Assembly: GCA_029564025.1 (NCBI GenBank) | Contig: JAKQQT010000507.1 | Coordinates: forward strand, 1-42,029 | DNA from: Armatimonadota bacterium | GTDB lineage: Bacteria > Armatimonadota > DTGP01 > JAKQQT01 | Length of the DNA: 42,029 bases | Reading direction: 5' to 3' | Program-made: the position numbers and the translations under genes | In this document: positions 10,324 through 25,587 of the stretch, one piece after another | Layout of the letters: the number at the start of each line of letters is the position of its first letter | Position numbering within the stretch: position 1 is the stretch's first letter | Notes under the pieces: model-generated | What the model saw: the letters and a program-made list of their open reading frames with translations, nothing else | Told to the model about the DNA's origin: nothing | The model's database searches: none

Positions 10324-10485
10324 GGTCATTTCCCCTTTCGTGTACGTCATCAAGTTAGTTCACAGCGGCCAGCGCAGTCGAGCGTTGCGGACCGGCGCAA
10401 CCGGAGGCGTCCGCGGGCGTCCAAGTATGATGGGCGGATGTTCTTTGCTCTTATTTTCCGTCAAAACACAGGGGGTTGAAAGAAC

Positions 10486-11508
10486 ATGACACGGAATCGC
10501 TGGATGATGGCGGCAGTCGCGTTGTTTGCCGTTCAGGCCTTGAGCGTGGCGGAGACATCGAAAAACGTTTTGCTGATCGGGTGGGACGGCGCGCGCCGCG
10601 GTCACGTGGAGAAAATGCTGGAAAGGAACGAACTGCCGACGCTGGCCGCGTTGAAAGCCGAAGGGAAGATGGTGAACATCAACGTCACCACCGGCGCCAC
10701 CGACACGAAAGCAGGGTGGAGCCAGATTTTGACCGGGTATCACCCAAACACCACGGGTGTCCACTCAAACGGGAAGTACCAGCCAATCCCGAAGGGATAT
10801 ACCATTTTCGAGCGCGCTGAAAAAGCGTTTGGAGACGACAAGGTGTACACGGCGATGATCGTGGCCAAGTCCGGCCACGTGGACGCCGCGGGCCCGGTGA
10901 AAGTCCCGTATCAGCGCTGGAAGACGCGAAGCGAGAAGGGTCCGCTGAAGAACCTGCCGGAACAGGCGCGACTGCGGCGCAACGGCATGAAGGTCATCCA
11001 GGAAGGCGCTCGGCGTTTCGTCGTGGCGCCGGGCAAGCCGTACTTCAACGCGAAGGATGGAATGGACCTTTTTGTGAACGGACTGAAAACGGACGAGGCC
11101 GTTTCAACGAGGACGCTGTCCGAAATCGAGAAGAACAAGGACAAGCGGTTCCTCATTTTCGCGCATTTCGCCCGGCCGGACCACGACGGACACCAGTTCG
11201 GCGAGGGTTCGAAGGAATACAGCGCCGGCTTGAAGGAAGACGACGAGTGGACCGGCAAGATCATCAAGCGCCTCAAGGAGATGAACCTCTACAAGGACAC
11301 CACCGTGTATGTAGTGGTGGACCACGGTTTTGACGTCGGAAAGACCACCCACCGCAACGCGCCCTACGTGTTTATGGCGACCAACGACACCGAGGTCCGG
11401 CGTCCGGGCGATCGGGCGGACATCGGTCCCACCGTCCTTAAGCGCCTGGGTATCGATATCGCCAAACTGGAGCCGCCGCTTTTTGGGAAGCCGCTGACTG
11501 AACGCTGA
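10486..11508 (+). CDS. Secreted alkaline phosphatase / nucleotide pyrophosphatase superfamily protein
   Basis: Signal peptide; LLIGWDG, TDTKAGWSQILTG (Thr nucleophile region), PDHDGH and VVDHG metal-ligand motifs. Confidence 0.8.
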   Translation: MTRNRWMMAAVALFAVQALSVAETSKNVLLIGWDGARRGHVEKMLERNELPTLAALKAEGKMVNINVTTGATDTKAGWSQILTGYHPNTTGVHSNGKYQPIPKGYTIFERAEKAFGDDKVYTAMIVAKSGHVDAAGPVKVPYQRWKTRSEKGPLKNLPEQARLRRNGMKVIQEGARRFVVAPGKPYFNAKDGMDLFVNGLKTDEAVSTRTLSEIEKNKDKRFLIFAHFARPDHDGHQFGEGSKEYSAGLKEDDEWTGKIIKRLKEMNLYKDTTVYVVVDHGFDVGKTTHRNAPYVFMATNDTEVRRPGDRADIGPTVLKRLGIDIAKLEPPLFGKPLTER

Positions 11509-11584
11509 AAATAAACAGCAAAAATAGCCGCGCCGATGTGGCCGCGTCGCGAATCCGGACGTACAATTAAGGCGTCGGTGACAG

Positions 11585-11617
11585 GGGGTTTCCGAATCAC
11601 CGGAAGCCCCTTTTTTT
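11585..11617 (+). terminator. Rho-independent terminator (possibly part of an attenuator)
   Basis: GGGGTTTCCG-aatcac-CGGAAGCCCC followed by T7. Confidence 0.85.
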
Positions 11618-11687
11618 GCTGGTCTTTCGCCGGGTCCTTCGCCGGGCTGTCTGTTGCTATCGGAGGAGACGGTGGAAGGGGGATTCC

Positions 11688-14600
11688 ATGGTATACCACA
11701 AGCGTTATCTTCTGACTCTTTTGCTCTTCCTGATCCCGGCGTCTGCGTGCCTCGCCGCAACATACACCGTAACATCGGCGGACGAAGACGGCCCCGGCAC
11801 GCTGAGGCAGGCCATTACCGACGCCAACGGCGACTCGGAAGCCGACGTCATCGCCTTCAGCCTGCCGCCGCCATACGAAATCAGCGTTTCTACAAACCTC
11901 CCGGCGATGTCCCAGCCGGTTACCATCGACGGCTCGACACAGGCCGGTTTCACCGGACCGCCGCTTGTTTCCCTAGTCGGAGCGGGCGCCTCCGAAGGGC
12001 TTGTCATCGAAACCGGTGGCTGTCAGGTCAGATGCCTGAACATCCGGAACTTCACCGGCGCCGCAATCACCATCCGCTGGGGCGCGGAGAATTCAGTTAC
12101 GGGTTGCTGGCTCGGTCTGGACGCATCGGGCGAGAACGCCGTGCCCAACAACCGCGGCATTATTCTTCAATGGGGAACAACCGACAACACCATCGGCGGA
12201 TTGTCCGGCGGCGACCGGAACGTCATTTCCGGCAACACGGAAACCGGGATCCACATCACCGACTGGAGCACGTCACGCAACAAGGTGCTGGGTAACATCA
12301 TCGGTCTGAACGCCGCCGGAACGAAGGCCGTTCCCAACCGGTTGGGAGTCGCCGTTTGCTGTGACGCATCAGACAATGTCATCGGCTCCACCGCGGTCGG
12401 GGGACGGAACATCATTTCCGGCAACTATGAGGCCAATATCCAGTTCGACGACCGACTGGGCGGCAACGTCATCAGCGGCAATTACATCGGCACCACGGTC
12501 GACGGCCTGGAGGTGCCGATCGACGCCGGTATGACGAAAGGGGTTGAACTCTGGAACAGTGTCGGGCAGATAATCGGGCCGGGTAACGTCATCGCTGGTC
12601 ACACGGAAGCCGGCATCCGCATCGGTGGTGTGTATTCCGTGAACAACAGAATCATCGGCAACTGGATTGGCGTCAAGTCGAACGGTACCGAGCCTCTGCC
12701 GAACGGCGACGGCATCAAGGTTGATAACAACGCCCACGACAACACCATCGGGGGAACCTCCGAGAGCACCCGGAACATCATCTCCGGAAACTCCCAGGTC
12801 GGTGTCCGCCTCAACGGGCCGGGCGTCACCGGCAACGTTGTCTGCGGCAACTACATCGGCCTGGATCCGGTCGGTGAAAACGCTGTCAGGAACGGCGAAT
12901 ACGGCGTGGCTATCCAGGACAGGGCGTCCGGAAACACCATCGGAGGCACACAATCCGAGGCGCGCAACGTTATTTCCGGAAACCAATCGGACGGTGTGCG
13001 CCTGGAAAACCCGGGAACGACGGCCAACGTTGTATCCGGAAACTACATCGGCCTCGACGCCACGGGTTCATTCGCTGTGTCCAACGAGGGAACCGGCATC
13101 AGCGTTACGGACCAGGCTTCTCGAAATACGTTCGGCGGAACTGCTTCTGGAACGCGGAACTACATTTCGGGCAACAAGGGCTGTGGAATCTTCATCGACG
13201 GTATCGGCACCACGTCAAATGTCGTTCAGGGCAATGTCATCGGCCTGGAAAAGACGGGACTCAGCGCCGTGCCTAATGAAAACCAGGGTGTGGTTGTTGC
13301 GAACGGCGCGGTGGATACGCTGGTGGGTGGAACCGCGGCGGGCGCAGGAAACATCATCTCCGGCAACAATTCCCACGGTATCGAGGTTTCCGGCCGCGAC
13401 ACCGCGCGCACCATCGTTCAGGGAAACACCATCGGCTTGAATGTACCGCGCAACGTCACCGTCGGCAACAACGGTAACGGAATCATGGTCAGTTGGGAGA
13501 CGAGGTTCAACCTCATCGGTGGAACAGCGCCCGGCGCAGGCAACCTGGTGACCGGCAACAGTTCCGGCATCCACGTCGAGGATGCGCACGACAACGTGGT
13601 TCAGGGGAATCTCATCGGAACCGACCCGACCGGCCGCCAGAACCTCGGCGCGGGCTGGGCCGGCGTGAACATCGCCCAGGGCTCGCAGAGGAACATCATC
13701 GGAGGCGCCGGGGCCGGTGAGCGCAACATCATCGTGGGCGGCTGGTCGGGCGTGGCCCTCGTTGATTCCGGCACGGCGCACAACGTCGTTCGCGGAAACC
13801 ACATTGGCGTGGACATCACCGGGAATATCATCCTGGGCGGCGGTGACCATGCCGTGAACATACGCGAAGGCGCCCACGAAAACGACATCGGGGGACCGGG
13901 AACCGGCGACGGCAACATCATCGCTGGCTACGGAGGCAACGGTGTCGTGCTGGCAGGTAACGTGAGCCCGGTGCGGAACCGCATACTCCGCAACTCCATC
14001 CGAAACCACAATCTGCTGGGAATCGACCTGGAACCTGCCGGCGTGACGCGAAATGACGCCCGTGATAGCGACACCGGACCCAACATGTTGCAGAACTATC
14101 CGGTACTGACGTCGGCCGCCTACAGCGCAGGCAATATAGACATCACAGGCACGCTGAACAGTGTTCCGTCCACCACATTCCGGCTGGAATTCTTCAACAA
14201 CGCCCTTTACGTTGCGGGAGCCTATGGGCAGGGTGAGGTGTATCTCGGCTCGCAGAATGTGACCACCGACGCCTTCGGTAACGCGGCGTTCAACGTGTCA
14301 TTGCCCGCGCCTTCCAGGCCGGGCGCCGGGGTCACCGCGACGGCCACGGATTCCGCCGGTAACACGTCGGAGTTCAGCCTGTCCGTAAAGGTCGCCGACC
14401 TGCCCGTCGAGAGCAGTCTCGTGGTGACCAACGTGTACGATTCCGGCGAAGGCTCACTGCGGCAGGCGATACTGGATGCCAACGCCAGGGCCGGCCTGGA
14501 CACCATCACCTTCAACATCCCCGGCGGCCTCCAGCAGATAGCACCCGTTTCACCACTGCCACCAGTCACCGAATCGGTGGTCATTGACGGCACAACACAA

Positions 14601-17600
14601 CCTGGCTTCACCGGAACGCCGTTGATCGTCCTCGGCGGATGGTCCAGCGGAAACTGCGACGGCCTGGTCATCCAGGCGGACTCGTGCGTCATCAAGGCGT
14701 TGAATATCGAGGGATACGCGCGGGCCGGCATCGTTCTGGAGAGCGGCGGAAACACCGTAACCGGATGCCAAATCGGTATCGACCCGACCGGGATATACCG
14801 GTCACCGTGCACGCCGGGTATTCTGGTGCAGGGTGATAACAACATCATCGGCGGCTCCACGGCGGCGGAGCGGAACGTTATCTCGGGCAACAACAGTGCC
14901 GGAATTCTCCTGGACGGCGCCGCCGGCACGATGGTCACCGGCAACTTCATCGGCCCTGACCCGAGCGGTATGCTCGAGATCGCCAACCTGGACTCGGCTG
15001 TGCAGTTCCTCAACGGCGCCAACAACAACGTTATCGGCGGCCTGGGTGCCGGGCAGGCGAACCTGATATCCGGCAACTACGCGGCGGGTGTCGAACTGCG
15101 CGGCCCGGATGTGACACTCAACACCATCCAGGGCAATTACATCGGCGTCGACGTGACCGGGGTGGAGCCGCTGGCCAACCACTGGCTGGGCGTCCGCCTG
15201 TGTTCGGGAGCCCATCATAACACGGTGTCGAAGAACGTGATATCGGGCAACTGGCACAACGGCGTCGAGATTGCCGATACCGGTTCCGACGGTAACTCCG
15301 TCCTGCAGAACGTCATCGGATTGTGCGTGATGGGTGATGCGGCAATTCCGAACAATGCGGGTGTTGTGGTTCGGTACGGCAAGGACGCTGTGGTTGGCGG
15401 AAACACCATCTCGGGCAACATTAACAGCGGTATTGAACTGAGTGAGACTTCGGCCAACCGGGTTTATGGAAATCTGGTCGGCACGGACGTTACGGGTAGT
15501 TTGCCTCTGGGCAACATGGCTCACGGTATTGTCCTTCTTGGAGCAAGCCACGACAACGTCATCGGCGGACTGGCTCCGGGCGACGGCAATATCGTCTCTG
15601 CCAGCGGTTCCAGCGGTATTCAGTTCTACACCGAAGGAAACCGGGACAACCTGGTGCAGGGCAACATCATCGGGTTGGACATCACCGGCACGAAGCCGCT
15701 GGGCAATGCCCGTGAAGGCATCAGTCTGTGTTGCGGGGCTTCAAACAACACCATCGGAGGTACGGTGGCGAGCGCTCGCAACGTCATCTCCGGCAATTAC
15801 GGCGCCGGCGTCGGCGATTGGGCGACAAACACCCGTATTCAGGGTAACTATATCGGAACCGACGTAACAGGCGCCACCGCCGTTGGCAACGCTTACCAAG
15901 GCGCATACCTGAACTCCACTAACCCGATGGTACTCAACAACGTGGTGTCCGGCAACATGGGAGGAGGTATCGTCCTGCAGAACTCCAGCGGCGGTGTGGT
16001 GCAGGGAAATCACGTGGGGACGAATGCGGCGGGAACGGCCGCCGTCGGCAATTACTGGCAAGGCATCGGCCTGTTCTGGGCCAACAGCAACCACGTCATC
16101 GGCGGCAGTCTCCCCGGCCAGGGAAACCTGGTGTCCGGCAACTTCGGAAACGGCGTCCAGGCCAGTGAACTCAGCATCTCCAACGTTCAAATCCTCGGCA
16201 ACCGCATCGGCGTTCAGGCCGACGGCGTATTGCCTCTGCCGAACCGTCAGAACGGTATCGAGTGCTTCAGTGGCGTCACCGGCGTCACAATCGGCGGAAC
16301 GGCCGCGGGCGCCGGAAACACCGTCGCGTTCAACGGCGAGCGGGGCGTGTGGATACGCGACGGCTACAACGGCTCCTGCACAGGAATCGCCGTGCGCGGC
16401 AACTCAATTCACAGCAACACCCTCCTCGGTATCGATATCGGGCCGGAGGGTGTTACGCCCAACGATAACCTGGACGCCGACACCGGGTCGAACGGATTGC
16501 AAAACTTCCCGGTGCTTACGAAAGCCACGCTGTCAGGCGGTCAGGCGACCGTCACCGGCACGATGAACAGCAAGGCGAACACTGTTTACGCCGTCGACTT
16601 CTTCTCGGGACCCGCCTGCACCGCGCCGTGCACTCAACAGGGCGCTGTGTACCTTGGTTCGACAAGCGTGACCACGGATGCCGCCGGTTCGATACCCGTC
16701 AGCGCCACGGTTCCGTGCGCCCTGCCGGCAGGCAGTGTCATCACCGCCACGGCGACTTCTCCCACGGGCGACACCTCGGAGTTTTCAGCCGGGGTGAATC
16801 TGGTGGACTTCAAGCCCGTTCTGGCTGTGACCAATGTGGCCGTCGATGATTCGCTTGGTAACAACAACGGCGTCATCGACTACAACGAGTGCGTGAAACT
16901 CACGGTCACCTTCGGCAACACCGGGGCGACGGACGCAACCGGCGTGACGACGGGGATGAGCGTGACGACATCGGGAGTGACGGTTGTCGACGCCTCGGCT
17001 CCGGTGCCGGATATCCCGGCCGGGGGTACGCGAGCCAACACCACTCCGTACAAGATCGGCGTCTCGCCGTTATTCGTATGCGGAACACCAATCACCGGTA
17101 CGATTCAGGTGACGTGCGGGCAGGGCGTGTACAACGTCCCATTTGCCGTCGCCACCGGCACGGTTTCGTCGCCGATCACATACACGGCAACGGGACCGGT
17201 TGCCATACCGGACGGCGACCTGGCAGGCGTTGACCTACCAATCAGCGTTTCCGGACTCAGCGGTACTCTGGCGGATGTTACGGTAGCGCTGTACATCAGC
17301 CACACGTGGGATTCCGACCTGGACATCAGCCTGATCGGGCCGGACGGCACGAAGGTGGCGCTGGCGTCGGGCAGGGGAGGTTCCGGAGACAAGTTCGGGG
17401 CGGACTGCCCGGCCGGTTCGAACGATACCATCTTCGACGACACGGCGGCGAACTCCATCGCAACCGGAACGGCCCCGTTTACCGGATCCTTCCGTCCGGA
17501 ACAACCGCTCTCCGCGTTTTACGGCAAGGCGGGCGCGGCGGTGAACGGCACGTGGAAATTGCACGTGGTTGATGTCGTATCGACGGACGCGGGAACGATC

Positions 17601-17915
17601 GAATGCGCCTCTGTGACCATTCGGGAGAGAACTTGTTCGGACGGCGGCGGAACCTGCTCCGGAACGTTCATCTACGGCGACGCAAACGGAGACGGACTGG
17701 TCAATGCGGACGACGTGAAAGCGCTGTTGAAGGCGGTGGGCGGTCTGGCGCGCACGAAGCCGATGAACGGAACGGCCGATATCAGCATCGCCGCCGTTGA
17801 CACCGCACCGAAGCCCTCCGCCGATCCACGCGGATTCGGCGATGGAAAGCTGACTATGGCGGACGTGGCGCGGTTGATACGCCATCTGAACGGCAAGGAG
17901 CCGGTTTACCCGTGA
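11688..17915 (+). CDS. Giant secreted protein (2075 aa): two tandem parallel beta-helix modules, Ig-like domain, proprotein-convertase P-domain, C-terminal dockerin-like domain
   Basis: ATG 11688 behind AAGGGGGA, then a signal peptide. Two modules each start VT...G[TS]LRQAI.DAN and end QN[YF]PVLT...TATAT...TSEFS, with many GNxIG/RNVISGN repeats. P-domain: AIPD...ISHTWDSDLDISLIGPDG...GTWKLHVVD. Tail: YGDANGDGLVNADDV...GDGKLTMADV. Confidence 0.88.
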   Translation: MVYHKRYLLTLLLFLIPASACLAATYTVTSADEDGPGTLRQAITDANGDSEADVIAFSLPPPYEISVSTNLPAMSQPVTIDGSTQAGFTGPPLVSLVGAGASEGLVIETGGCQVRCLNIRNFTGAAITIRWGAENSVTGCWLGLDASGENAVPNNRGIILQWGTTDNTIGGLSGGDRNVISGNTETGIHITDWSTSRNKVLGNIIGLNAAGTKAVPNRLGVAVCCDASDNVIGSTAVGGRNIISGNYEANIQFDDRLGGNVISGNYIGTTVDGLEVPIDAGMTKGVELWNSVGQIIGPGNVIAGHTEAGIRIGGVYSVNNRIIGNWIGVKSNGTEPLPNGDGIKVDNNAHDNTIGGTSESTRNIISGNSQVGVRLNGPGVTGNVVCGNYIGLDPVGENAVRNGEYGVAIQDRASGNTIGGTQSEARNVISGNQSDGVRLENPGTTANVVSGNYIGLDATGSFAVSNEGTGISVTDQASRNTFGGTASGTRNYISGNKGCGIFIDGIGTTSNVVQGNVIGLEKTGLSAVPNENQGVVVANGAVDTLVGGTAAGAGNIISGNNSHGIEVSGRDTARTIVQGNTIGLNVPRNVTVGNNGNGIMVSWETRFNLIGGTAPGAGNLVTGNSSGIHVEDAHDNVVQGNLIGTDPTGRQNLGAGWAGVNIAQGSQRNIIGGAGAGERNIIVGGWSGVALVDSGTAHNVVRGNHIGVDITGNIILGGGDHAVNIREGAHENDIGGPGTGDGNIIAGYGGNGVVLAGNVSPVRNRILRNSIRNHNLLGIDLEPAGVTRNDARDSDTGPNMLQNYPVLTSAAYSAGNIDITGTLNSVPSTTFRLEFFNNALYVAGAYGQGEVYLGSQNVTTDAFGNAAFNVSLPAPSRPGAGVTATATDSAGNTSEFSLSVKVADLPVESSLVVTNVYDSGEGSLRQAILDANARAGLDTITFNIPGGLQQIAPVSPLPPVTESVVIDGTTQPGFTGTPLIVLGGWSSGNCDGLVIQADSCVIKALNIEGYARAGIVLESGGNTVTGCQIGIDPTGIYRSPCTPGILVQGDNNIIGGSTAAERNVISGNNSAGILLDGAAGTMVTGNFIGPDPSGMLEIANLDSAVQFLNGANNNVIGGLGAGQANLISGNYAAGVELRGPDVTLNTIQGNYIGVDVTGVEPLANHWLGVRLCSGAHHNTVSKNVISGNWHNGVEIADTGSDGNSVLQNVIGLCVMGDAAIPNNAGVVVRYGKDAVVGGNTISGNINSGIELSETSANRVYGNLVGTDVTGSLPLGNMAHGIVLLGASHDNVIGGLAPGDGNIVSASGSSGIQFYTEGNRDNLVQGNIIGLDITGTKPLGNAREGISLCCGASNNTIGGTVASARNVISGNYGAGVGDWATNTRIQGNYIGTDVTGATAVGNAYQGAYLNSTNPMVLNNVVSGNMGGGIVLQNSSGGVVQGNHVGTNAAGTAAVGNYWQGIGLFWANSNHVIGGSLPGQGNLVSGNFGNGVQASELSISNVQILGNRIGVQADGVLPLPNRQNGIECFSGVTGVTIGGTAAGAGNTVAFNGERGVWIRDGYNGSCTGIAVRGNSIHSNTLLGIDIGPEGVTPNDNLDADTGSNGLQNFPVLTKATLSGGQATVTGTMNSKANTVYAVDFFSGPACTAPCTQQGAVYLGSTSVTTDAAGSIPVSATVPCALPAGSVITATATSPTGDTSEFSAGVNLVDFKPVLAVTNVAVDDSLGNNNGVIDYNECVKLTVTFGNTGATDATGVTTGMSVTTSGVTVVDASAPVPDIPAGGTRANTTPYKIGVSPLFVCGTPITGTIQVTCGQGVYNVPFAVATGTVSSPITYTATGPVAIPDGDLAGVDLPISVSGLSGTLADVTVALYISHTWDSDLDISLIGPDGTKVALASGRGGSGDKFGADCPAGSNDTIFDDTAANSIATGTAPFTGSFRPEQPLSAFYGKAGAAVNGTWKLHVVDVVSTDAGTIECASVTIRERTCSDGGGTCSGTFIYGDANGDGLVNADDVKALLKAVGGLARTKPMNGTADISIAAVDTAPKPSADPRGFGDGKLTMADVARLIRHLNGKEPVYP

Positions 17916-17924
17916 TAACACGGA

Positions 17925-17957
17925 AGGAAGGGGGCATTTGACCTCTGCCCCCTTCCT
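17925..17957 (+). terminator. Perfect 12-bp hairpin after the giant gene (probable terminator)
   Basis: AGGAAGGGGGCA-tttgacctc-TGCCCCCTTCCT, with only a weak U-tract (GTTGT). Confidence 0.55.
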
Positions 17958-17967
17958 GTTGTAAAAT
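17938..17967 (+). promoter_or_regulatory. Sigma70-type promoter of tRNA-Ala
   Basis: TTGACC (17938-43)-N18-TAAAAT (17962-67), 9 nt before the tRNA 5' end. Confidence 0.65.
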
Positions 17968-17976
17968 CTGTGTGCT

Positions 17977-18052
17977 GGGCCTGTGGCGCAGTTGGGAGCG
18001 CGCCTCAATGGCATTGAGGAGGCCAAGGGTTCGAATCCCTTCAGGTCCACCA
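17977..18052 (+). tRNA. tRNA-Ala (anticodon GGC)
   Basis: 76-nt cloverleaf: acceptor GGGCCTG/CAGGTCC with G3:U70, anticodon arm CCTCA-ATGGCAT-TGAGG, T arm AAGGG-TTCGAAT-CCCTT, encoded CCA. Confidence 0.97.
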
Positions 18053-18064
18053 CCGGACTGTATC

Positions 18065-18094
18065 GACCCCGCCCGGAAGGGCGGGGTCTTTTTT
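18065..18094 (+). terminator. Rho-independent terminator of tRNA-Ala
   Basis: GACCCCGCCC-GGAA-GGGCGGGGTC followed by T6. Confidence 0.92.
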
Positions 18095-18112
18095 GTTTTG
18101 GAGGTTCGCACG

Positions 18113-19069
18113 ATGCGGGAAATCCAATTTGCGGGAAACCCGACGTTCCTGGTCACCGGCGGCGGCGGTTTCATCGGCTCGCACATAGCCGAAACGCTGG
18201 TCGGCATGGGGCATACCGTGCGCGTGCTGGATGACTTCAGCACCGGACACATGTCCAACATCCCGCCCGGGTGCGATGTGATCGAGGGCAGTATCACGGA
18301 TTTGGAAGTCGTGCGCTCCGCCGTGGACGGCATCGATTACATACTCCACCAGGCGGCTATTCCCAGTGTGCCGCGCAGTGTGAAAGACCCTCTGGCTTCG
18401 CACAACGCTAACGTTGACGGCACGCTGAATCTTCTCCTTGCCGCGCGCGACGCGAAAGTCCGCCGTCTTGTTTACGCATCGTCCTCCAGTGTCTACGGAG
18501 ACATGCCGACATTGCCGAAGGTCGAAACGATGCCCCCGCGCCCGAAGTCGCCGTACGCTTTGCAGAAACTGACCGCCGAGGAGTACTGCCGCATTTTCTT
18601 CGATGTGTACGGGCTTGAGACAGTGAGCCTGCGCTATTTCAATGTCTTCGGTCCGAGGCAGGATCCGAAGAGTTACTACACCGGCGTCATCGCCAAGTTC
18701 GCCACGGCACTGCTGACAGGGCAGACGCCCACCATCTTCGGAGACGGTTTCCACAGCAGGGACTTCACCTTCGTCAGCAACAACGTGCGCGCCAATCTGC
18801 TGGCTTGCACCGCGCCCGCCTCGGCCGCCGGGCAGACGATGAACGTCGCGTGCGGCGACCGAATCACGCTCAGGCAACTGCTGGACAGCATACAGGAGAT
18901 TCTGGGCACCGGCGTTCAGCCGGAATACGGCCCCGAACGTGAAGGGGACGTGCGCGACAGCCAGGCGGACATCAACAAGGCGCGGGAACTGATCGGTTAC
19001 GAACCGGCGGTCGGCTTCATCGACGGTCTTCGAACGACGATGGAGTGGTACCGAAAAACGCTGGCCTGA
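18113..19069 (+). CDS. NAD-dependent nucleotide-sugar epimerase (UDP-Glc/GlcNAc 4-epimerase, WbpP-like)
   Basis: LVTGGGGFIGSH, HQAAIPSVPRSV, YASSSSVYG, YALQK (YxxxK), LRYFNVFGPRQDP, RDFTFV. Start ATG 18113 after GGAGG; the ORF-track start runs through the tRNA. Confidence 0.92.
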   Translation: MREIQFAGNPTFLVTGGGGFIGSHIAETLVGMGHTVRVLDDFSTGHMSNIPPGCDVIEGSITDLEVVRSAVDGIDYILHQAAIPSVPRSVKDPLASHNANVDGTLNLLLAARDAKVRRLVYASSSSVYGDMPTLPKVETMPPRPKSPYALQKLTAEEYCRIFFDVYGLETVSLRYFNVFGPRQDPKSYYTGVIAKFATALLTGQTPTIFGDGFHSRDFTFVSNNVRANLLACTAPASAAGQTMNVACGDRITLRQLLDSIQEILGTGVQPEYGPEREGDVRDSQADINKARELIGYEPAVGFIDGLRTTMEWYRKTLA

Positions 19070-19165
19070 CCGGTTGTGCGCGGCGTGTCGTCAAAGACGC
19101 TATAGTTATAGAAAAGCCGCCTTTCATAAGTTGCCATTGCCAGCACGGCGGCCGACCTACGCTCA

Positions 19166-20692
19166 ATGATGAACCGAAATCTGTTTGGCGGCCTCATTCT
19201 GGCCGTGTCCCTCATGGTCTTTTCAACCGCGTGTGTCCGCGCCCAGATCATCGCAGACCGCGTGTACGGTCAACCGGACTTTGCCACCGCCCTGCCGGGC
19301 AACTCCGCCGTTCCGCCCAATGCGCGCATCAACCTGCCGTATGACGTGGCGGCCGGGCCTGAAGGTGTGTACATTTCGGACAACTATTACCACCGAGTCC
19401 TTTTCTTTCCGGGCGAGGCCGTGGAAGCCACGGCTGTTTACGGCCAGCCGAACTTCGAAAGCCTCAGCCCCAACAACGGCGGCGTAAGCGCCAACAGCCT
19501 GAACTACCCCTGGGGTGTGGCGCGCGACAGTTTCGGTGTCTACATTGCGGACGGCAACAACAACCGAGTGCTCTTCTACCCGCACGGTTCCACCACCGCC
19601 ACGCGTGTTTACGGCCAACCTTCGTTCACCTCAAACAAGGCCAACTACTACGGTTTGAACGAGAACTCGCTGTTCGGCCCGTCCTTCCTGGCTACGGACG
19701 GGACAGGCGGCCTGTACGTGGCGGATACCGGCAACAACCGCGTTCTCTTTTTTCCGCCGAACAGCACCACGGCGACGAAGGTCTGGGGCCAGCCGAAGTT
19801 CACGACGAACTACCAGGGCGCCAGCGATACCGCGGTATCTTCCCCGCGCGGGATTGCGGTCGACTCGGAAGGCCTTTATGTGGTGGATTACAATAACCAC
19901 CGGGCGTTGTTCTTCCCGCACGGTTCGACAACCGCCACACGCGTCTACGGACAGCCGGATTTCACATCGTTTTTCCCGAACGATGGAGGATGCGGACCCA
20001 ACACCCTGCAACAACCGCTGGGATGCGCCGTGGACGAGACGGGATTTTATGTGGACGACTATCTGAACAGCCGGGCGCTGTTCTGGCCGCACGGCAGTAA
20101 TGTCGCCTCGGTGGTTTACGGTCAGACGGATTTCACCACGGTGCGCCTTAACTGGAATGGAGTCACGCCGTACGGGTTCTACGCGCCGCGCTCGGTCACA
20201 ACGGATGCCACCGGCGTTTATGTTTGCGATTTTGGCGGACGGGTGCTGAGGTTTCCGAAAACCACAACCCCGATGGCGGCGAGTGTTTCGTTCTTGACGG
20301 CTCCAGTTGGCGCGCGCGCGGGGCAACCATTTGAGGTCCAGCCTTCGGCTGTTGTACGTTATTCCAACGGCGCGCAAGCGACAAACTACACAGGTAATGT
20401 GCGCATACGCATCAAGCCGGGTTCCGGTCCGTCGTGCGGAACGTTGCTCGGAACGACCACCGTGTCGGCGGTTGCCGGAATCGCGACGTTTACCAACCTC
20501 GCCATCGACAAGCCCGGAACATACGAATTGATGGTCACCACGGCCACCTTTCCCATTCCGGAAACGGTGTCTGTCACAATTGGCGCGGCGCCGGGAGAAT
20601 CGCTGGCAGGTGATGTGAACGGAGACGGTTTCTTCAATGTCGCCGATGTAGCCGCCACTCTGAAAATCGCCGCGGGGTTGTCAACACCATGA
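19166..20692 (+). CDS. Secreted NHL-repeat beta-propeller protein with Ig-like domain and a single dockerin-type repeat
   Basis: Signal peptide; about six repeats of YxxDxxNNRVLF.P...ATRVYGQPxF; Ig-like GIATFTNLAIDKPGTYEL; tail GDVNGDGFFNVADVAATLKIAAGL. Confidence 0.85.
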   Translation: MMNRNLFGGLILAVSLMVFSTACVRAQIIADRVYGQPDFATALPGNSAVPPNARINLPYDVAAGPEGVYISDNYYHRVLFFPGEAVEATAVYGQPNFESLSPNNGGVSANSLNYPWGVARDSFGVYIADGNNNRVLFYPHGSTTATRVYGQPSFTSNKANYYGLNENSLFGPSFLATDGTGGLYVADTGNNRVLFFPPNSTTATKVWGQPKFTTNYQGASDTAVSSPRGIAVDSEGLYVVDYNNHRALFFPHGSTTATRVYGQPDFTSFFPNDGGCGPNTLQQPLGCAVDETGFYVDDYLNSRALFWPHGSNVASVVYGQTDFTTVRLNWNGVTPYGFYAPRSVTTDATGVYVCDFGGRVLRFPKTTTPMAASVSFLTAPVGARAGQPFEVQPSAVVRYSNGAQATNYTGNVRIRIKPGSGPSCGTLLGTTTVSAVAGIATFTNLAIDKPGTYELMVTTATFPIPETVSVTIGAAPGESLAGDVNGDGFFNVADVAATLKIAAGLSTP

Positions 20693-22209
20693 ACTTCCGA
20701 ACAGCATCTACCGCTCTTGCCGTGCTTATCTTCGCCGCACCGGGGCAAGCCCTGGTGATGCCCGACCGCGTTTACGGACAACCGAACCTGAACGTGGTGA
20801 TTTCCAACAACCCGGACCTTCCACCCAATGGCCGGATGGTGTCTCCCAGGGGTGTCGCGGTAACCGAAGAGGGTGTTTACATCAGCGATGAGATGCTGAA
20901 TCGCGTGCTGTTTATGCCGGGTGGCTCTATCCTCGCCTCGCGGGTGTACGGACAGCCGGATTACTCAAGCACGTTTTACAACCACTACGGGCTCAATGCG
21001 TCCAGCCTGTCCCGTCCGGCAGAGGTGGAAGCCAACGATTCCGGCGTTATCATCGCGGACTGGCGAAACTCGCGCGCTCTTTTTTACCGTCCCGGTGAAA
21101 CCACAGCCAGCCGGGTATTCGGCCAACCGGGCTTTGGTTCCTCATGTCCCCAGTGGGATGGCATTTCTCCCAACAGCCTCACGTATCCTGAAAACGTATC
21201 GCTGGACGCCAACGGAGGGGCCTACGTAACTGACTCGTTCATCTGCCGGGTGCTGTATTACCCGCCGGGCAGTTCGTGGGCCACTCGTGTGTACGGCGCC
21301 GAAACCCTTTACAGCATGTTCACGGGATCGAATGAGAAGTGGATGAACAGCGCGGCAGGAACTGCCGTTTCGGCCGATGGGGTATACATTGCCGACCGCG
21401 CAAACCACCGGGTGCTGTTTTATCCTCACGGAAGCCAGTCGGCCACACGCGTCTACGGGCAACCGAACTTCACCGCGCACGTCGTGAACAACGGCGGAAT
21501 CAGCGCCAACTCGCTGTACTACCCGACGGATGTTGCCCTCGACAAGGACGGTGTGTACATCAGCGACACATACAACAAGCGCGTGCTGTTCTACCCCGGA
21601 ACCAGCACCACGGCTACCATCGTATACGGACAACCGAGCCTGAACACGGTGGTTAACTCGTCAGCGCCGGGAGACGGTATCCTCTCCGATGCCCGCGCAA
21701 TTGCGGTGGACGAATTCGCCGTCTACGTTGTGGAAACTTACCGCGCCCGGGTGGTCCGGTACCCCAAGGTGGGTGTGAATGTGCCAAGATCGTTTGAGTT
21801 CACGGGCCAACCCGGAACGGCCAAGGCAGGGGAATCCCTTTCGGAATCACCATTGGTCGTTGTAAGGAAAGCAGACGGAACCATCGCCTCGGACTTCAAC
21901 GGATTCGTCCGTGTGAAACTTGCCTCAGGTGTTGGACCTTCGTGCGCCAAACTGCTCGGAACAACGAAGTTTCCGGTGATAAACGGTGTCGCCGTGCTTG
22001 ATGATGTGCGGGTGGACACACCGGGAACGTATAAGCTGACCGCCAGTGTGGGAACGCTGACAGAGCACGACAGCGCGGAGTTCACCATCACCGCGCCGGA
22101 CCACGCGTTCAACCCGGCGGACGCCGACCACAGCGGATCCGTGACGATCACCGATGCGGTTCTGCTGTTGCGCGCATTCGCCGGTCTTGACGGCCTGACG
22201 AACGGCTGA
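20689..22209 (+). CDS. Secreted NHL-repeat beta-propeller paralog with Ig-like domain and a single dockerin-type repeat
   Basis: ATGA overlap with the upstream paralog; same RVLFYP...ATRVYGQP repeats; GVAVLDDVRVDTPGTYKL; tail ADADHSGSVTITDAVLLLRAFAGL. Confidence 0.85.
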   Translation: MNFRTASTALAVLIFAAPGQALVMPDRVYGQPNLNVVISNNPDLPPNGRMVSPRGVAVTEEGVYISDEMLNRVLFMPGGSILASRVYGQPDYSSTFYNHYGLNASSLSRPAEVEANDSGVIIADWRNSRALFYRPGETTASRVFGQPGFGSSCPQWDGISPNSLTYPENVSLDANGGAYVTDSFICRVLYYPPGSSWATRVYGAETLYSMFTGSNEKWMNSAAGTAVSADGVYIADRANHRVLFYPHGSQSATRVYGQPNFTAHVVNNGGISANSLYYPTDVALDKDGVYISDTYNKRVLFYPGTSTTATIVYGQPSLNTVVNSSAPGDGILSDARAIAVDEFAVYVVETYRARVVRYPKVGVNVPRSFEFTGQPGTAKAGESLSESPLVVVRKADGTIASDFNGFVRVKLASGVGPSCAKLLGTTKFPVINGVAVLDDVRVDTPGTYKLTASVGTLTEHDSAEFTITAPDHAFNPADADHSGSVTITDAVLLLRAFAGLDGLTNG

Positions 22210-22353
22210 TCCTTCCCCAACAAGCCTGCGCCTCCCGACGCCGTTTGTTCGCGCGGCTTTCGACATGCCTTATCATGAAGATGATTCCATGCGCCCGGAG
22301 GCTTTGTAAGGAGCATACTGGCGCACCGTCACACGGCATGGAGGCAAGTTCAC

Positions 22354-25300
22354 ATGCGACGCACCGTTACGTTCACCTGGCGCCTGGCGCTTTTGTCCGC
22401 TCTGGGCATGATGCTGATGGGACAATCCGCCCGCGCTCAGACATGGGCCGACCTCTATTACAGGAACCGTCTGCCTTTCACAATCAACAACACATCCGGA
22501 CGGGCCTTCGCCGCGTCCGAACTGGCAACCGCAACTATTCCGGCATCGCTGACCGGGGACCTCGTTCGGCCCGACGGTTCGGACATTGCCGTATATTACG
22601 ACCAGACTCCCCTGCCAACCAAGGCCATGCCGATGGGCGGCTGTGTGAAGGTTGTGTTTCCCCTGCAGTCAGCGCTGGCCACGGGTACTTCCCAGTCGGG
22701 GTACACCCTTTATTTCAATGGCTACACGGGTTTCACCCCTCCGGCCGTACCGGCCGGAATCGTCTCCTATGATTTCCGCGATGGCAATCTGCACGGTTGG
22801 AAGAGCCTTCAGGATCCCGCCAATACGGGCCAGTCGGGCTCCGATGTGGTAATCGCCCCGGATCCGCAGGACGGCGAAACCTCGATGCTGTTGCAGGCAA
22901 CCAAGTACCATCACCCGATGGCCTATGCGGACGAGATGACTCCCGTGGGCGACGCGACGATGTACTTCGCCGGCCGAGCTTACGAGGGGCAGAAGGAAGT
23001 TGCGCCGATTCAACGATTCAATACCCAGGTCCTGATGGACTCGGAAGGCGCACAGTACGTAACCGGCGCTGATATCCCGGGTGTTGGTATTGCATTGGAC
23101 TCGTACGGTTCCTATGCCATGGGAATCATGACTACCCTGGGCGCGGAAGAGGGGACGCCGGCCCGGCGGCATCCGGGCCCGGAGATAATCATCGAGGGAT
23201 ACCCGTACACCGTTAACTCGCCAAACGTGCAATACGCGACCGTTGCGACGCGGTTGAAATCCGGAACCACCTGGTTCGCCGCGGACTGGTGGCAGGCGCA
23301 GAACAGGTTCGGAAACAGCGATCCTGTTGCCGGGGGATACCGGTTGAGCGTCAACACGGCGTCCAAGATCGGCGTTCAACCAATGCCGGAAGGCAAATTG
23401 GCGCTGATGCAGTACTACACCCCGGTCTACGTGAAGTGGATGTGCCTCGTACCCGGCGGTTGGTCGGACGACGTAACGACAACCACGGGAAGCGTGGAAT
23501 CCGCCCCCGGATTGCCGCCGGGCGCGGCTGTGATCCGCGGGATTGTGTACGATTCAACCGGCGGACCGGTGTTCACAATTGCGGACGCCACCGTTACCAT
23601 CAAGGACCAGAGCAACAACACCGTTGCCACCCTTACCACGGATGTAAACGGAAAATACGAGGCACTGGTTACGGCGACAGCCACACCGCAAATCTTCACG
23701 ATATCCGCCGTGAAGGGTGAGGCCACAGGCAGTGTCCAGCAGAACGTGACGGAAAGCGTGGAATACCAGATCGACCTGGGTATAACGTATCCAAACTTCG
23801 TCACGGGAATCATCAGCGACCCGCTGGGACGGCCCATTTCGGGAGCGGCGGTCGGATTCATGCTGGACGGCGGTCCGTACGTTTACACCGGAGCCAACGG
23901 CGTTTACGTTATACCGGTTCCCATCGGAACAGCCGTCCTTGGCGCACACAAGGATGGGCGCCTGATGGCCGGTCCGAAGTGGGTGAACACGGCTCGCGGC
24001 ACGGTGACCCAGCACATGACGAGTTTCCCGGCGATTACCAATATCATCGCGGGTATGACACCCAATCCGGTGCCGGGAGGAACAGGAACCGGCAACCTGA
24101 CTGACGGCATGTACAGCACGTACTGGGAGAGCGGTTCGGTGGCCGGGGTATCGCCCACAACGCCGATTCGCATCTCATTCCCGCTGACAAATGCCACGAT
24201 CACCGAAGTGGTCGTCCACTGGAAGAACCATCCGACAGCCTGGCATATCGAACTGACCAACCAGGTGACGAATTCCAGCGGACGAAATCCTTACAACGAT
24301 ACCCGTACGTACTACAACGCGGGTGAGAACGGACCGATCGAGCGCGGTGGATATACACCGCCCGGTTCTTCAGACCGCACCGTCGTACCAATGAAGACCG
24401 CGCGCGTGACCGGCGTGAGCATGCTGTCCATCGTTATCACCGGCGTGGCCGACAGCAATCCGGTATCGATATATGAAATCGAAGTCCGCAAGCCGGAATC
24501 ATCGCTGGAAGACGCGGCGGCGGCCTTGATGGTTGCCGCGGGATTGATGCGCGCTCCGACAGACATCGATATTCAAACCCGTTGGGCATCCTATCGGGAA
24601 TCGAAGAACATCGATGTCGCCACGGCCGTGCGCCTTGCCAGGGACACGCCACTGGAATACCGTGCGTTGCGGGTTCTGGCCATCAACTACGAACCGATTA
24701 TCGAGTCTGAAGGCAACAAGAAAGTACGCTTGGTGTTCGGGTGGAACAACCCCATCACGAATAATGAGAACCACCGCAAGGATATGGAACTCGCCAGCAA
24801 CGGTTATCTGCGGATTTACATGTTGCCACAGTTCATCCTGGACGAATGGCCTCTGCACCTCGATGGAACGCGCTACACCGACGCCCAGTACCTGGCGGAA
24901 ACCCGCGCGGGGAACTGGACGAAGGTTGGCGGAGACTACAACGCCATCATCCGGCAGTTCGACCTGGTGCGCCGCGTTGACGTGGGGGACGTGGACGAAA
25001 TCTGGTTGCAAGGCATACCGGGCCTCGGCTGGTGGGAAACCACCATGGCCGGCAAAAACGCCTACTGGTGCAACTCCGGACCCGTGCCCGGCCAGACCGG
25101 CAACCGCCTGTTTATCCTCAGTGGATTCAACTACGAACGCGGCAACGACTGTATGCTTGAAGATTGGGGGCACCGCTCCGAAAGTATCCTCGGCTTCAAG
25201 GTCTACGGCGGATGGAATGCGGCCAGCGAACGCACGCTGTTCGACAAGTTCACCAGGTTCGAGAAAATCACACCGGGCAAGGCTTCGTGCGGCAACGTTC

Positions 25301-25587
25301 ACTATCCGCCGAACGGGACATCCGACTACGACTTCGCGAACACGACATACGTGTCCAGCGATGCGGACGACTGGCTGAACTACCCGAACTATCCGAGCGA
25401 GGGCGCGCCCCGGAAGATGATCAACCGAAGCGCCTGGGCGACACCGTACACCGGCGACTACCACCGCAACTACCACATCTGGTGGTTCAAGCGCTTCCCG
25501 CACGTGGCCGGCGTAGCCACCGACGGGCGACAGCACAACTGGTGGAAGTACGTGGTGTTCCTGAACGAACAACCCGAAAGCCGCTAG
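22354..25587 (+). CDS. Secreted 1077-aa multidomain protein (DUF2341-like N-terminus, carboxypeptidase-regulatory-like domains, discoidin/CBM32-like domain, degenerate dockerin, C-terminal zincin-like domain)
   Basis: Signal peptide ending ARA; WADLYYRNRLPFTINN...PDGSDIAVY; IRGIVYD...IADATVTI...TTDVNGKY; VTGIISD..GRPISGAAV; NLTDGMYSTYWES; LEDAAAALMVAAGL...IDVATAVRLAR; GFNYERGNDCMLEDWGHRSES. The domain names are pattern-based. Confidence 0.75.
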   Translation: MRRTVTFTWRLALLSALGMMLMGQSARAQTWADLYYRNRLPFTINNTSGRAFAASELATATIPASLTGDLVRPDGSDIAVYYDQTPLPTKAMPMGGCVKVVFPLQSALATGTSQSGYTLYFNGYTGFTPPAVPAGIVSYDFRDGNLHGWKSLQDPANTGQSGSDVVIAPDPQDGETSMLLQATKYHHPMAYADEMTPVGDATMYFAGRAYEGQKEVAPIQRFNTQVLMDSEGAQYVTGADIPGVGIALDSYGSYAMGIMTTLGAEEGTPARRHPGPEIIIEGYPYTVNSPNVQYATVATRLKSGTTWFAADWWQAQNRFGNSDPVAGGYRLSVNTASKIGVQPMPEGKLALMQYYTPVYVKWMCLVPGGWSDDVTTTTGSVESAPGLPPGAAVIRGIVYDSTGGPVFTIADATVTIKDQSNNTVATLTTDVNGKYEALVTATATPQIFTISAVKGEATGSVQQNVTESVEYQIDLGITYPNFVTGIISDPLGRPISGAAVGFMLDGGPYVYTGANGVYVIPVPIGTAVLGAHKDGRLMAGPKWVNTARGTVTQHMTSFPAITNIIAGMTPNPVPGGTGTGNLTDGMYSTYWESGSVAGVSPTTPIRISFPLTNATITEVVVHWKNHPTAWHIELTNQVTNSSGRNPYNDTRTYYNAGENGPIERGGYTPPGSSDRTVVPMKTARVTGVSMLSIVITGVADSNPVSIYEIEVRKPESSLEDAAAALMVAAGLMRAPTDIDIQTRWASYRESKNIDVATAVRLARDTPLEYRALRVLAINYEPIIESEGNKKVRLVFGWNNPITNNENHRKDMELASNGYLRIYMLPQFILDEWPLHLDGTRYTDAQYLAETRAGNWTKVGGDYNAIIRQFDLVRRVDVGDVDEIWLQGIPGLGWWETTMAGKNAYWCNSGPVPGQTGNRLFILSGFNYERGNDCMLEDWGHRSESILGFKVYGGWNAASERTLFDKFTRFEKITPGKASCGNVHYPPNGTSDYDFANTTYVSSDADDWLNYPNYPSEGAPRKMINRSAWATPYTGDYHRNYHIWWFKRFPHVAGVATDGRQHNWWKYVVFLNEQPESR

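Follow-up and report, generated by a model that had tools for sequence, protein, structure and literature searches.

A single dockerin-type repeat at the C terminus of two coupled NHL-propeller paralogs and of other secreted proteins in an Armatimonadota genome

Two adjacent genes of an uncultured Armatimonadota bacterium, A and B, are most plausibly read as tandem duplicates encoding a secreted protein in which a propeller is followed by an Ig-like domain and, at the C terminus, by a tag that represents a naturally truncated single-repeat module of dockerin type, first-repeat in kind and generic rather than private to A and B; we would give this reading as a whole an even chance. The genes were analyzed within a stretch of 42,029 nucleotides, hereafter the window, belonging to the genome termed G000. 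The features of the locus are collected in Table 1.

Table 1. Positions in the window of genes A and B, their tails and Ig-loop cysteines, and the dockerin-like module of the neighboring giant protein.
Feature	Position	Strand	Description
Giant's two-repeat dockerin-like module	17676..17894	+	C-terminal end of a 2099-aa beta-helix / P-domain protein (11616..17915)
Gene A	19166..20692	+	508 aa ORF; signal peptide, NHL propeller, Ig-like domain, single dockerin-type repeat
Cys424 codon of A	20435..20437	+	Ig-like domain loop (GPSC); ortholog alignment column
Tail A, residues 482-505	20609..20680	+	Ca loop D483, N485, D487, D494 and helix 492-502; first-repeat type
A/B overlap ATGA	20689..20692	+	A stop overlaps B start; context ...CCATGAAC...
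Gene B	20689..22209	+	506 aa ORF; architecture as in A
Cys419 codon of B	21943..21945	+	Alignment column of A Cys424
Tail B, residues 477-500	22117..22188	+	Ca loop D478, D480, S482, D489 and helix; diverged repeat

Architecture of the two paralogs

The ORF coordinates and the sequence at the junction confirmed the first-pass annotation, which had described two paralogs of these lengths sharing an ATGA; by this overlap the two genes are probably translationally coupled. Over 494 aligned residues, A and B share 39% identity (E 7e-119), and their colinearity extends through the tails. In A, a six-bladed NHL propeller occupies residues ~31-364 and the Ig-like domain residues 371-473. Both proteins exceeded the Pfam cut-off of 20 bits for the NHL repeat (PF01436), with 56 bits for A and 55.4 bits for B; furthermore, the AF2 model of A (mean pLDDT 89) contains six propeller blades and matched the NHL propellers of Pizza6, PknD and TRIM proteins in Foldseek with E about 1e-19, so that membership in the NHL repeat beta-propellers is supported by score, model and structural comparison. 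Cys23 of A was considered as a lipoprotein cysteine and rejected, as it is absent from orthologs or found at varying places of their signal peptides. A promoter and terminator scan of positions 17800-22500 gave counts at shuffle level, the sole convincing terminator being located downstream of a tRNA-Ala.

The single-repeat tails

As annotated, each paralog ends after one Ca loop plus helix, and the stop codon follows the closing GL after three residues in A and after six in B. In both tails the loop is of the type D-x-[DN]-x-[DNS]-G...D, and the ligand pattern n, n+2, n+4, n+6 (backbone) and n+11 is present, n+6 corresponding to F489 in A and S484 in B; the loop of tail B is preceded by Ala, not Gly. 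A remnant second repeat past the stops was rejected, since no such segment was found beyond the stop of A or B in any frame.

Searching the PDB by sequence, the eight best matches of tail A were all dockerins (E 6.7e-4 to 0.013), as were all four matches of tail B with E<0.1 (E 0.0067-0.075). Against Pfam Dockerin_1, tail A reached 15.5 bits (E 0.02, profile positions 2-16) and stayed below the cut-off of 22.9 bits; tail B did not match this model and scored 12.6-13.6 bits with EF-hand models (EF-hand_6, 13.6 bits), and neither whole A nor whole B matched Dockerin_1 at E<=1. In all 14 orthologs of ~500 aa, one loop and one helix are retained and a shared G[LF] is followed by another 3-8 residues and the stop; the Asp at loop positions 1 and 12 does not vary in either the A set or the B set. 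The PDB matches and this conservation bear out the description of the tails as conserved Ca-loop-plus-helix units of dockerin type; judged by sequence comparison, both are dockerin-like beyond chance.

The first-pass annotation had gone further and matched the first tail to repeat 1, the second to repeat 2 of the dockerin-like module of the giant protein, thus regarding them as complementary halves. That module consists of segments at residues 2021-2044 and 2075-2093, the second loop being degenerate, and scored 16.7 bits with Dockerin_1 over residues 2020-2092, below the 22.9-bit cut-off. A repeat classifier was built from position scores of 20 first and 15 second repeats taken from two-repeat modules of the same genome; upon leave-one-out testing it correctly assigned 20 of the 20 first repeats and 12 of the 15 second repeats. 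Tail A scored +20.8 bits towards repeat 1, and all eight tails of A-type (n=6, +8.6 to +20.8) and G007-type (n=2, +10.4 and +12.0; G007 is a sister genome) lean to repeat 1. The window's tail B scored +9.5 bits, likewise towards repeat 1; among the six B-type tails (-12.6 to +9.5), five lean to repeat 1 and one to repeat 2. Hence, the parallel of the second tail with repeat 2 was not reproduced and the notion of complementary halves has to be given up: because the tails align colinearly and both score as repeat 1, B more weakly, they are, at the level of sequence, paralogous copies of one segment and not two different halves.

The same tag on other proteins of the genome

By regular expression and inspection, 33 ORFs ending in loop plus helix were found in G000, 27 with two helices and six with one. 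Those with a single helix are A, B, C375, C534, C540 and the fragment C605; the single-tail carriers comprise, besides the two NHL proteins, an S8 protease (C375), an FG-GAP protein (C534) and a beta-helix protein. The loci C375, C534 and C540 are unlinked to A/B, and no second dockerin-tailed ORF was found on their contigs. The single tail of C534 passed the Dockerin_1 cut-off of 22.9 bits with 29.3 bits, matching profile positions 1-23 of 57 only. Three partnerless proteins that are not propellers thus bear the same single tail, which does not support the earlier claim that only paired propellers dock. Because unrelated proteins of one genome carry it, the tag is a generic module of secreted proteins of this lineage, and A and B probably do not own it as an exclusive lock-and-key pair.

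A candidate receptor is encoded in the same genome: contig C677 carries a gene for a cohesin-plus-dockerin protein. All eight members of its family matched Pfam Cohesin (best E 3.4e-8), and its AF2 model matched solved cohesins with E 1.4e-9. Screening G000 with Pfam Cohesin (PF00963) gave nothing above the cut-off (best 19.4 bits), and no cohesin gene was found among the large ORFs flanking A/B in the window.

In the favored reading of a generic single-repeat tag, Ca2+ would order the tail loop, and the amphipathic helix could then dock on a cohesin-type receptor or, antiparallel, on another tail of its kind; one receptor site may in this way serve a pair of tagged proteins, as it does for group-2 dockerins of Ruminococcus flavefaciens. 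Calcium binding, docking and pairing are all predicted properties of the tails. Because A and B would be made together from one coupled message, they are the likeliest proteins to sit side by side, although the tag does not demand pairing. Several observations speak against a generic tag of this kind. Neither tail of the pair reaches the Dockerin_1 cut-off, a single helix cannot supply a hydrophobic core by itself, the additional C-terminal helix by which group-2 dockerins interlock is missing, and the flanking large ORFs include no cohesin gene; moreover, the conserved coupled tandem and a cysteine kept in pairs and not in a singleton hint at a specificity for A plus B for which a purely generic tag would not account.

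Orthologs and the possible pairing of A and B

The first alternative is an obligate 1:1 heterodimer of A and B in which the antiparallel single repeats form a composite dockerin, possibly with a disulfide between the Ig-like loops, so that only the pair docks. We regard it as unlikely, although part of the ortholog data point in its direction. The sister genome G023 contains the same tandem with the same 4-nt overlap as G000, and P0008/P0041, whose contigs are of equal length, presumably represent a third pair. The tails of A-type and of B-type are each conserved in their own right and differ systematically in the residue preceding the loop (Gly versus Ala) and in loop positions 9-11, and the B-type tails are less repeat-1-like than the A-type tails. 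The expectation that orthologs always occur in pairs held for G023 and failed for G007, the sister genome of 98% completeness: because it has one full-length member only, with intact tail, a singly occurring ortholog, which the first-pass annotation had named as evidence against its heterodimer, does exist. Together with the same tail standing alone on three unrelated proteins, and with a tail B that in the window still scores as repeat 1 and is a colinear homolog of tail A, this singleton argues against obligate pairing; relatives that share the Ig-like domain but bear two-helix modules likewise lend it no support. A complex prediction for tail A (472-508) and tail B (467-506) with two Ca scored 0.20 and 0.19, short of the 0.32 mark, and speaks neither for nor against pairing.

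The cysteine in the GPSC motif is kept in both Ig-like domains, as had been annotated (C424 in A, C419 in B). It is the only positionally conserved cysteine, with Cys at this column in 10 of 14 orthologs; because it is the only mature cysteine in P0005 and P0008, it has no conserved intrachain partner. All six members of the three pairs (two evident, one presumed) have it and the G007 singleton does not, a correlation drawn from three related lineages; the cysteine is likewise missing in P0028 and P0097. Judging by the order of strands in the model, the tail probably emerges from the Ig-like domain at the pole that also bears the Cys loop. The most specific form of the heterodimer, in which A Cys424 and B Cys419 lock the two chains by a disulfide, the F-hands, that of A of repeat-1 type and that of B drifting to repeat 2, form a dockerin in trans, and a cohesin of the C677 type binds only the composite, is improbable in our estimation. 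If it were true, the disulfide-locked A/B pair would amount to a docking device of natural origin that needs two keys, derived by duplication from a self-pairing single-repeat ancestor resembling the G007 gene.

Single EF-hand peptides and proteins dimerize on binding Ca2+, and the tails might do likewise: A with A, B with B and the protease or any other carrier through its own tail, the tandem then being a plain duplication. The tail-bearing singletons fit such homotypic pairing. So does the structure of R. flavefaciens group-2 dockerins (PDB 9GVB), in which both dockerins on the cohesin derive from the same protein and make 39 contacts with each other (PMC12270676); that pair was, however, seen on the cohesin and not free. 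Homotypic pairing also leaves the conserved divergence of A and B tails unexplained; we consider it quite unlikely.

We are equally doubtful of readings without any intermolecular role, in which the tail either packs as a Ca2+-binding cap onto the Ig-like domain of the same chain or is left over from a full dockerin in decay. A cap would be consistent with the AF2 monomer of A, which shows mean pLDDT of 71-84 in 10-residue blocks spanning residues 471-508 with no partner present. A truncation did occur, because relatives with the same Ig-like domain (C44, C673, C589 and P0154) bear full two-helix modules; a decaying remnant is nevertheless hard to reconcile with Ca ligands, helix and stop position kept in 14/14 orthologs of two paralog lines and with the recurrence of the tail on four protein types.

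Wider searches were carried out for further relatives. A metagenome scan with A yielded 55 loci, among which no close ortholog context was found: 54 showed 25-39% best-segment identity, which did not exceed 33% wherever the match spanned the greater part of the propeller, and locus L064 matched residues 478-508 of A only, with 55% identity. The Ig-like domain plus tail gave 4865 matches at E<=1e-3 among 1.84 billion representatives; all but one of the 150 matches listed are proteins of 668-6995 aa that contain the Ig-like domain in multiple copies, with 5-39 stretches matched, the exception, P0001, being the query's own protein. With regard to tails, the search was informative only through P0154, the C-terminal end of which is a full two-repeat dockerin. 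A word search with the tail region of A (residues 455-508) yielded 55 candidates and two matches, P0277 and P0278, which were rejected as tail relatives as they match through FG-GAP Ca loops and not through tails.

Comparison with known systems

As a bacterial extracellular NHL propeller, the sensor domain of PknD (PDB 1RWL/1RWI) resembles A in its six-bladed NHL fold (Foldseek E about 1e-17). Unlike PknD, A and B have neither a kinase nor a transmembrane part and carry an Ig-like domain and a docking tag instead.

EF-hand pairing offers a likeness in that a unit of one Ca loop and one helix acquires a core once it is joined by another. In the A model, DSSP assigned coil to residues 474-491 and helix to 492-502; because no helix enters the loop, the tail is an F-hand as in dockerins and not an EF-hand.

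Canonical type I dockerins (PF00404) share the loop consensus and the helix with the tails and provide the best sequence matches of both; two-repeat versions are common in G000 (27 of 33). The tails differ from them in having one repeat in place of two tandem segments of ~22 residues, in scoring below 22.9 bits in Pfam, and in the lack of a cohesin gene among the flanking large ORFs.

The closest functional parallel is found in the group-2 dockerins of R. flavefaciens FD-1 (RfDoc2, PDB 9GVB; PMC12270676, J Biol Chem 2025), two of which, each with a single repeat, bind antiparallel on one cohesin and thereby mimic a full dockerin; an extra C-terminal helix interlocks the two copies. The premise that a dockerin needs two repeats in one chain, from which the first-pass annotation had started, is outdated by this structure (PMC12270676). 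Like the tails of A and B, RfDoc2 has a single Ca loop and helix, contacting cohesin in its case, located C-terminally on functionally varied secreted proteins, and a cohesin-plus-dockerin protein is likewise encoded in the genome of A and B. Specific homology was not detectable (tail A versus 9gvb_B, E 0.31, 14.6 bits), and in contrast to RfDoc2 the A/B tails are of first-repeat type with one helix (492-502) and no interlocking C-terminal helix; they at most work like the RfDoc2 family and are not members of it. Further differences are the host, an Armatimonadota bacterium, the carriers found, namely propeller, protease, beta-helix and FG-GAP proteins, and the presence of two diverged tails encoded by coupled paralogs.

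The authors of that report describe the R. flavefaciens group-2 dockerins as the only known functional naturally truncated dockerins (PMC12270676), and our literature search turned up neither dockerin homodimers nor a single-repeat dockerin from Armatimonadota. Here, a single Armatimonadota genome has conserved single-repeat tails, in a shorter form without the extra helix, on five or more secreted proteins, none of them a known cellulosomal protein. Should the tails prove functional, half-dockerins would be a general surface-assembly tag in uncultured phyla and not an oddity of the rumen. With the coupled A/B pair, one could test on a small scale if a heterotypic dockerin of two chains can arise from single repeats after duplication, and short orthogonal docking tags of this kind could be useful for designer scaffolds.

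Results

The window is one contig of a 3.87-Mb genome bin (G000) of 756 contigs, and homologs of its proteins carry the name Armatimonadota in their sources. Two adjacent genes, A and B, are arranged head to tail, and the ORF coordinates together with an ATGA common to the stop codon of A and the start codon of B confirmed the overlapping NHL paralogs described by the first-pass annotation. The proteins share 39% identity over 494 residues, and their alignment is unbroken through both C-terminal tails. Pfam revealed NHL repeats only (56 and 55.4 bits). An AlphaFold2 model of A (mean pLDDT 89) showed a signal-peptide helix, a six-bladed propeller and an Ig-like sandwich, followed by a coil and a single helix (residues 492-502); mean pLDDT of residues 471-508 was 71-84 per 10-residue block. 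The propeller grouped with the NHL propellers of Pizza6, PknD and TRIM NHL domains in Foldseek.

Features of the window and of two further loci of its genome bin, G000
Feature	Position	Strand	Remarks
tRNA-Ala (GGC)	17977-18052	+	between giant beta-helix gene and epimerase-like gene
Strong terminator hairpin	18065-18088		after tRNA-Ala
ORF A	19166..20692	+	508 aa
Ig-like domain of A	20276-20584		residues 371-473
Tail A			residues 482-505
Shared ATGA	20689-20692	+	
ORF B	20689..22209	+	506 aa
Tail B			residues 477-500
ORF directly downstream of B	22354..25587	+	1077 aa
Loop-less two-helix stretch, dockerin-like in appearance	24505-24648	+	residues 718-765 of the 1077-aa protein
L071	C677:1217-2131	-	264 aa, secreted
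L072	C491:8237-9208	+	324 aa, secreted

The tRNA-Ala gene and its terminator imply that the long ORF 17972..19069 starts later than listed. The loop-less stretch of the 1077-aa protein is flanked on one side by a CarboxypepD_reg-type domain and on the other by a large C-terminal region for which no family match was found.

Both tails carry the dockerin/EF-hand-loop ligand pattern (n, n+2, n+4, n+6, n+11) and then an amphipathic helix closing in GL. No second-repeat-like sequence was found beyond the stop codons of A and B, in agreement with the proposal that each paralog ends after a single calcium loop plus helix. Among PDB sequences, the best eight matches of tail A were all dockerins (E 6.7e-4 to 0.013), the group-2 dockerin 9gvb_B being matched at E 0.31; all four matches of tail B with E<0.1 were dockerins as well. 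Against Pfam Dockerin_1, tail A reached 15.5 bits on profile positions 2-16, below the cut-off, and tail B gave no match. Judged by sequence, both tails are of dockerin type.

The single-repeat tail is a genuine and conserved feature. All 14 proteins of about 500 aa (eight A-like, six B-like) end in a single loop plus helix, with the stop codon 3-8 residues past G[LF]. Full-length matches at E<=1e-40 occurred in three of 301 genomes of the phylum (G000 and its sister genomes G007 and G023), all of one family. A check proposed by the first-pass annotation was whether orthologs always co-occur as half-dockerin pairs. This held for G023, where a pair shows the identical 4-nt overlap (10061..11578 and 11575..13074), and probably for a third pair, P0008/P0041, deduced solely from the equal size of their contigs; it failed for G007 (98% complete), which has a single full-length member with methyltransferase-like genes on either side. 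A search of G007 with B found no second copy, the next-best match (E 3.7e-15) covering the Ig-like domain only. Maximum-likelihood phylogeny put P0015 and P0022, the G007-type proteins, as the sister group of the B clade with 98/97 support, a placement that is unsure because B branches are long; A-types lie at the base, their branching order not settled.

Repeat-type position scores were built from the two-repeat C-terminal modules of G000 itself (20 first and 15 second repeats); in a leave-one-out check, 20/20 first and 12/15 second repeats were correctly classed. As had been proposed for A, all six A-type tails leaned to repeat 1 (+8.6 to +20.8), and so did both G007-type tails (+10.4 and +12.0). 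The parallel drawn between tail B and repeat 2 was not borne out: five of six B-type tails had a weak bias for repeat 1 (from +2.7 up to +9.5, the latter for B of the window), and only P0061 leaned to repeat 2 (-12.6). An earlier 16-module version, leaving out the mis-anchored module C43, gave the same picture. These scores mark the A tail as a first-repeat unit and the B tail as a diverged copy, moved part-way towards second-repeat features (Ala for Gly before the loop; Thr and Ile/Leu at loop positions 9-10). A and B thus end in paralogs of one segment and not in two different halves.

A canonical loop plus helix closes 33 of the G000 ORFs with 150 aa or more. By regular expression and inspection, 27 have two helices, one loop often being degenerate, and six have one: A, B, the 5'-open fragment C605 and, by Pfam, a subtilase (C375), an FG-GAP repeat protein (C534) and a right-handed beta-helix protein (C540). 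The single tail of C534 passes Dockerin_1 (29.3 bits, profile positions 1-23 only). No other dockerin-tailed ORF was found on the contigs of C375, C540 and C534 (27.6, 18.1 and 14.1 kb). Genome-wide, three layouts of C-terminal dockerin-like modules exist side by side: loop and helix 1 ahead of a second loop that is degenerate, a helix 1 without its loop followed by an intact loop and helix 2, and both loops intact. Their coexistence suggests frequent loss of one calcium site. The tails of A and B are a single-repeat dockerin-type tag, for which the best reading is that it is generic; to this we give an even chance.

No cohesin above the Pfam cut-off was found in G000. The L071 protein, however, has a cohesin fold at its N-terminus and a dockerin-like module of two repeats at its C-terminus. 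In its family, all eight members matched Cohesin (best E 3.4e-8) and five of eight Dockerin_1, and in Foldseek its model (pLDDT 76) matched solved cohesins with E values of 1.4e-9 or lower. At least one protein of the organism therefore combines cohesin with dockerin; it might serve the many dockerin-tailed proteins of G000 as adaptor or receptor. L072, whose first dockerin-like repeat passes Pfam (26.3 bits) and whose N-terminus shows very weak cohesin-likeness (12.7 bits), may be a second such protein.

The Ig-like domain of A had no Pfam match at E<=1. It also occurs in C375 and C540 and, with two-helix modules, in C44, C673, C589 and P0154. In 149 of the best 150 of 4865 matches (668-6995 aa) each protein contained 5-39 stretches matching it; it appears to be a widespread repeat domain not yet described. 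The GPSC cysteine, said to be kept in both paralogs, was indeed present (A 424, B 419) and forms the sole Cys column common to the family, filled in 10 of 14 orthologs and missing in P0015, P0022, P0028 and P0097. It is the only mature Cys of P0005 and P0008. Since it has no conserved partner in the same chain, it is either a free thiol or part of an inter-chain bond. Going by the strand order of the model, not coordinates, Cys loop and tail should exit the domain at the same pole.

Discussion

The first-pass annotation had proposed that A and B form a 1:1 heterodimer rebuilding a dockerin in trans, so that only the pair would dock. Such an obligate split dockerin is still alive as an unlikely minority view: the cysteine is filled in all six proteins of the three pairs (two shown, one inferred) and empty in the G007 singleton P0015, in a small sample of related lineages. 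Homotypic pairing is somewhat less probable again, and a role of the tails in cis, or none, we consider just as doubtful.

A precedent for single-repeat tags is found in the group-2 dockerins of Ruminococcus flavefaciens, which have a single calcium loop and are functional according to PMC12270676. There, halves cut from canonical dockerins kept binding in three of four cases, and the authors regard group-2 as the only known functional natural truncations; a single-binding mode for them had been an earlier guess in PMC2930009. In PDB 9GVB, one ScaE cohesin is bound by two antiparallel group-2 copies, joined by 39 contacts and described as 'mimicking' a full dockerin (PMC12270676).
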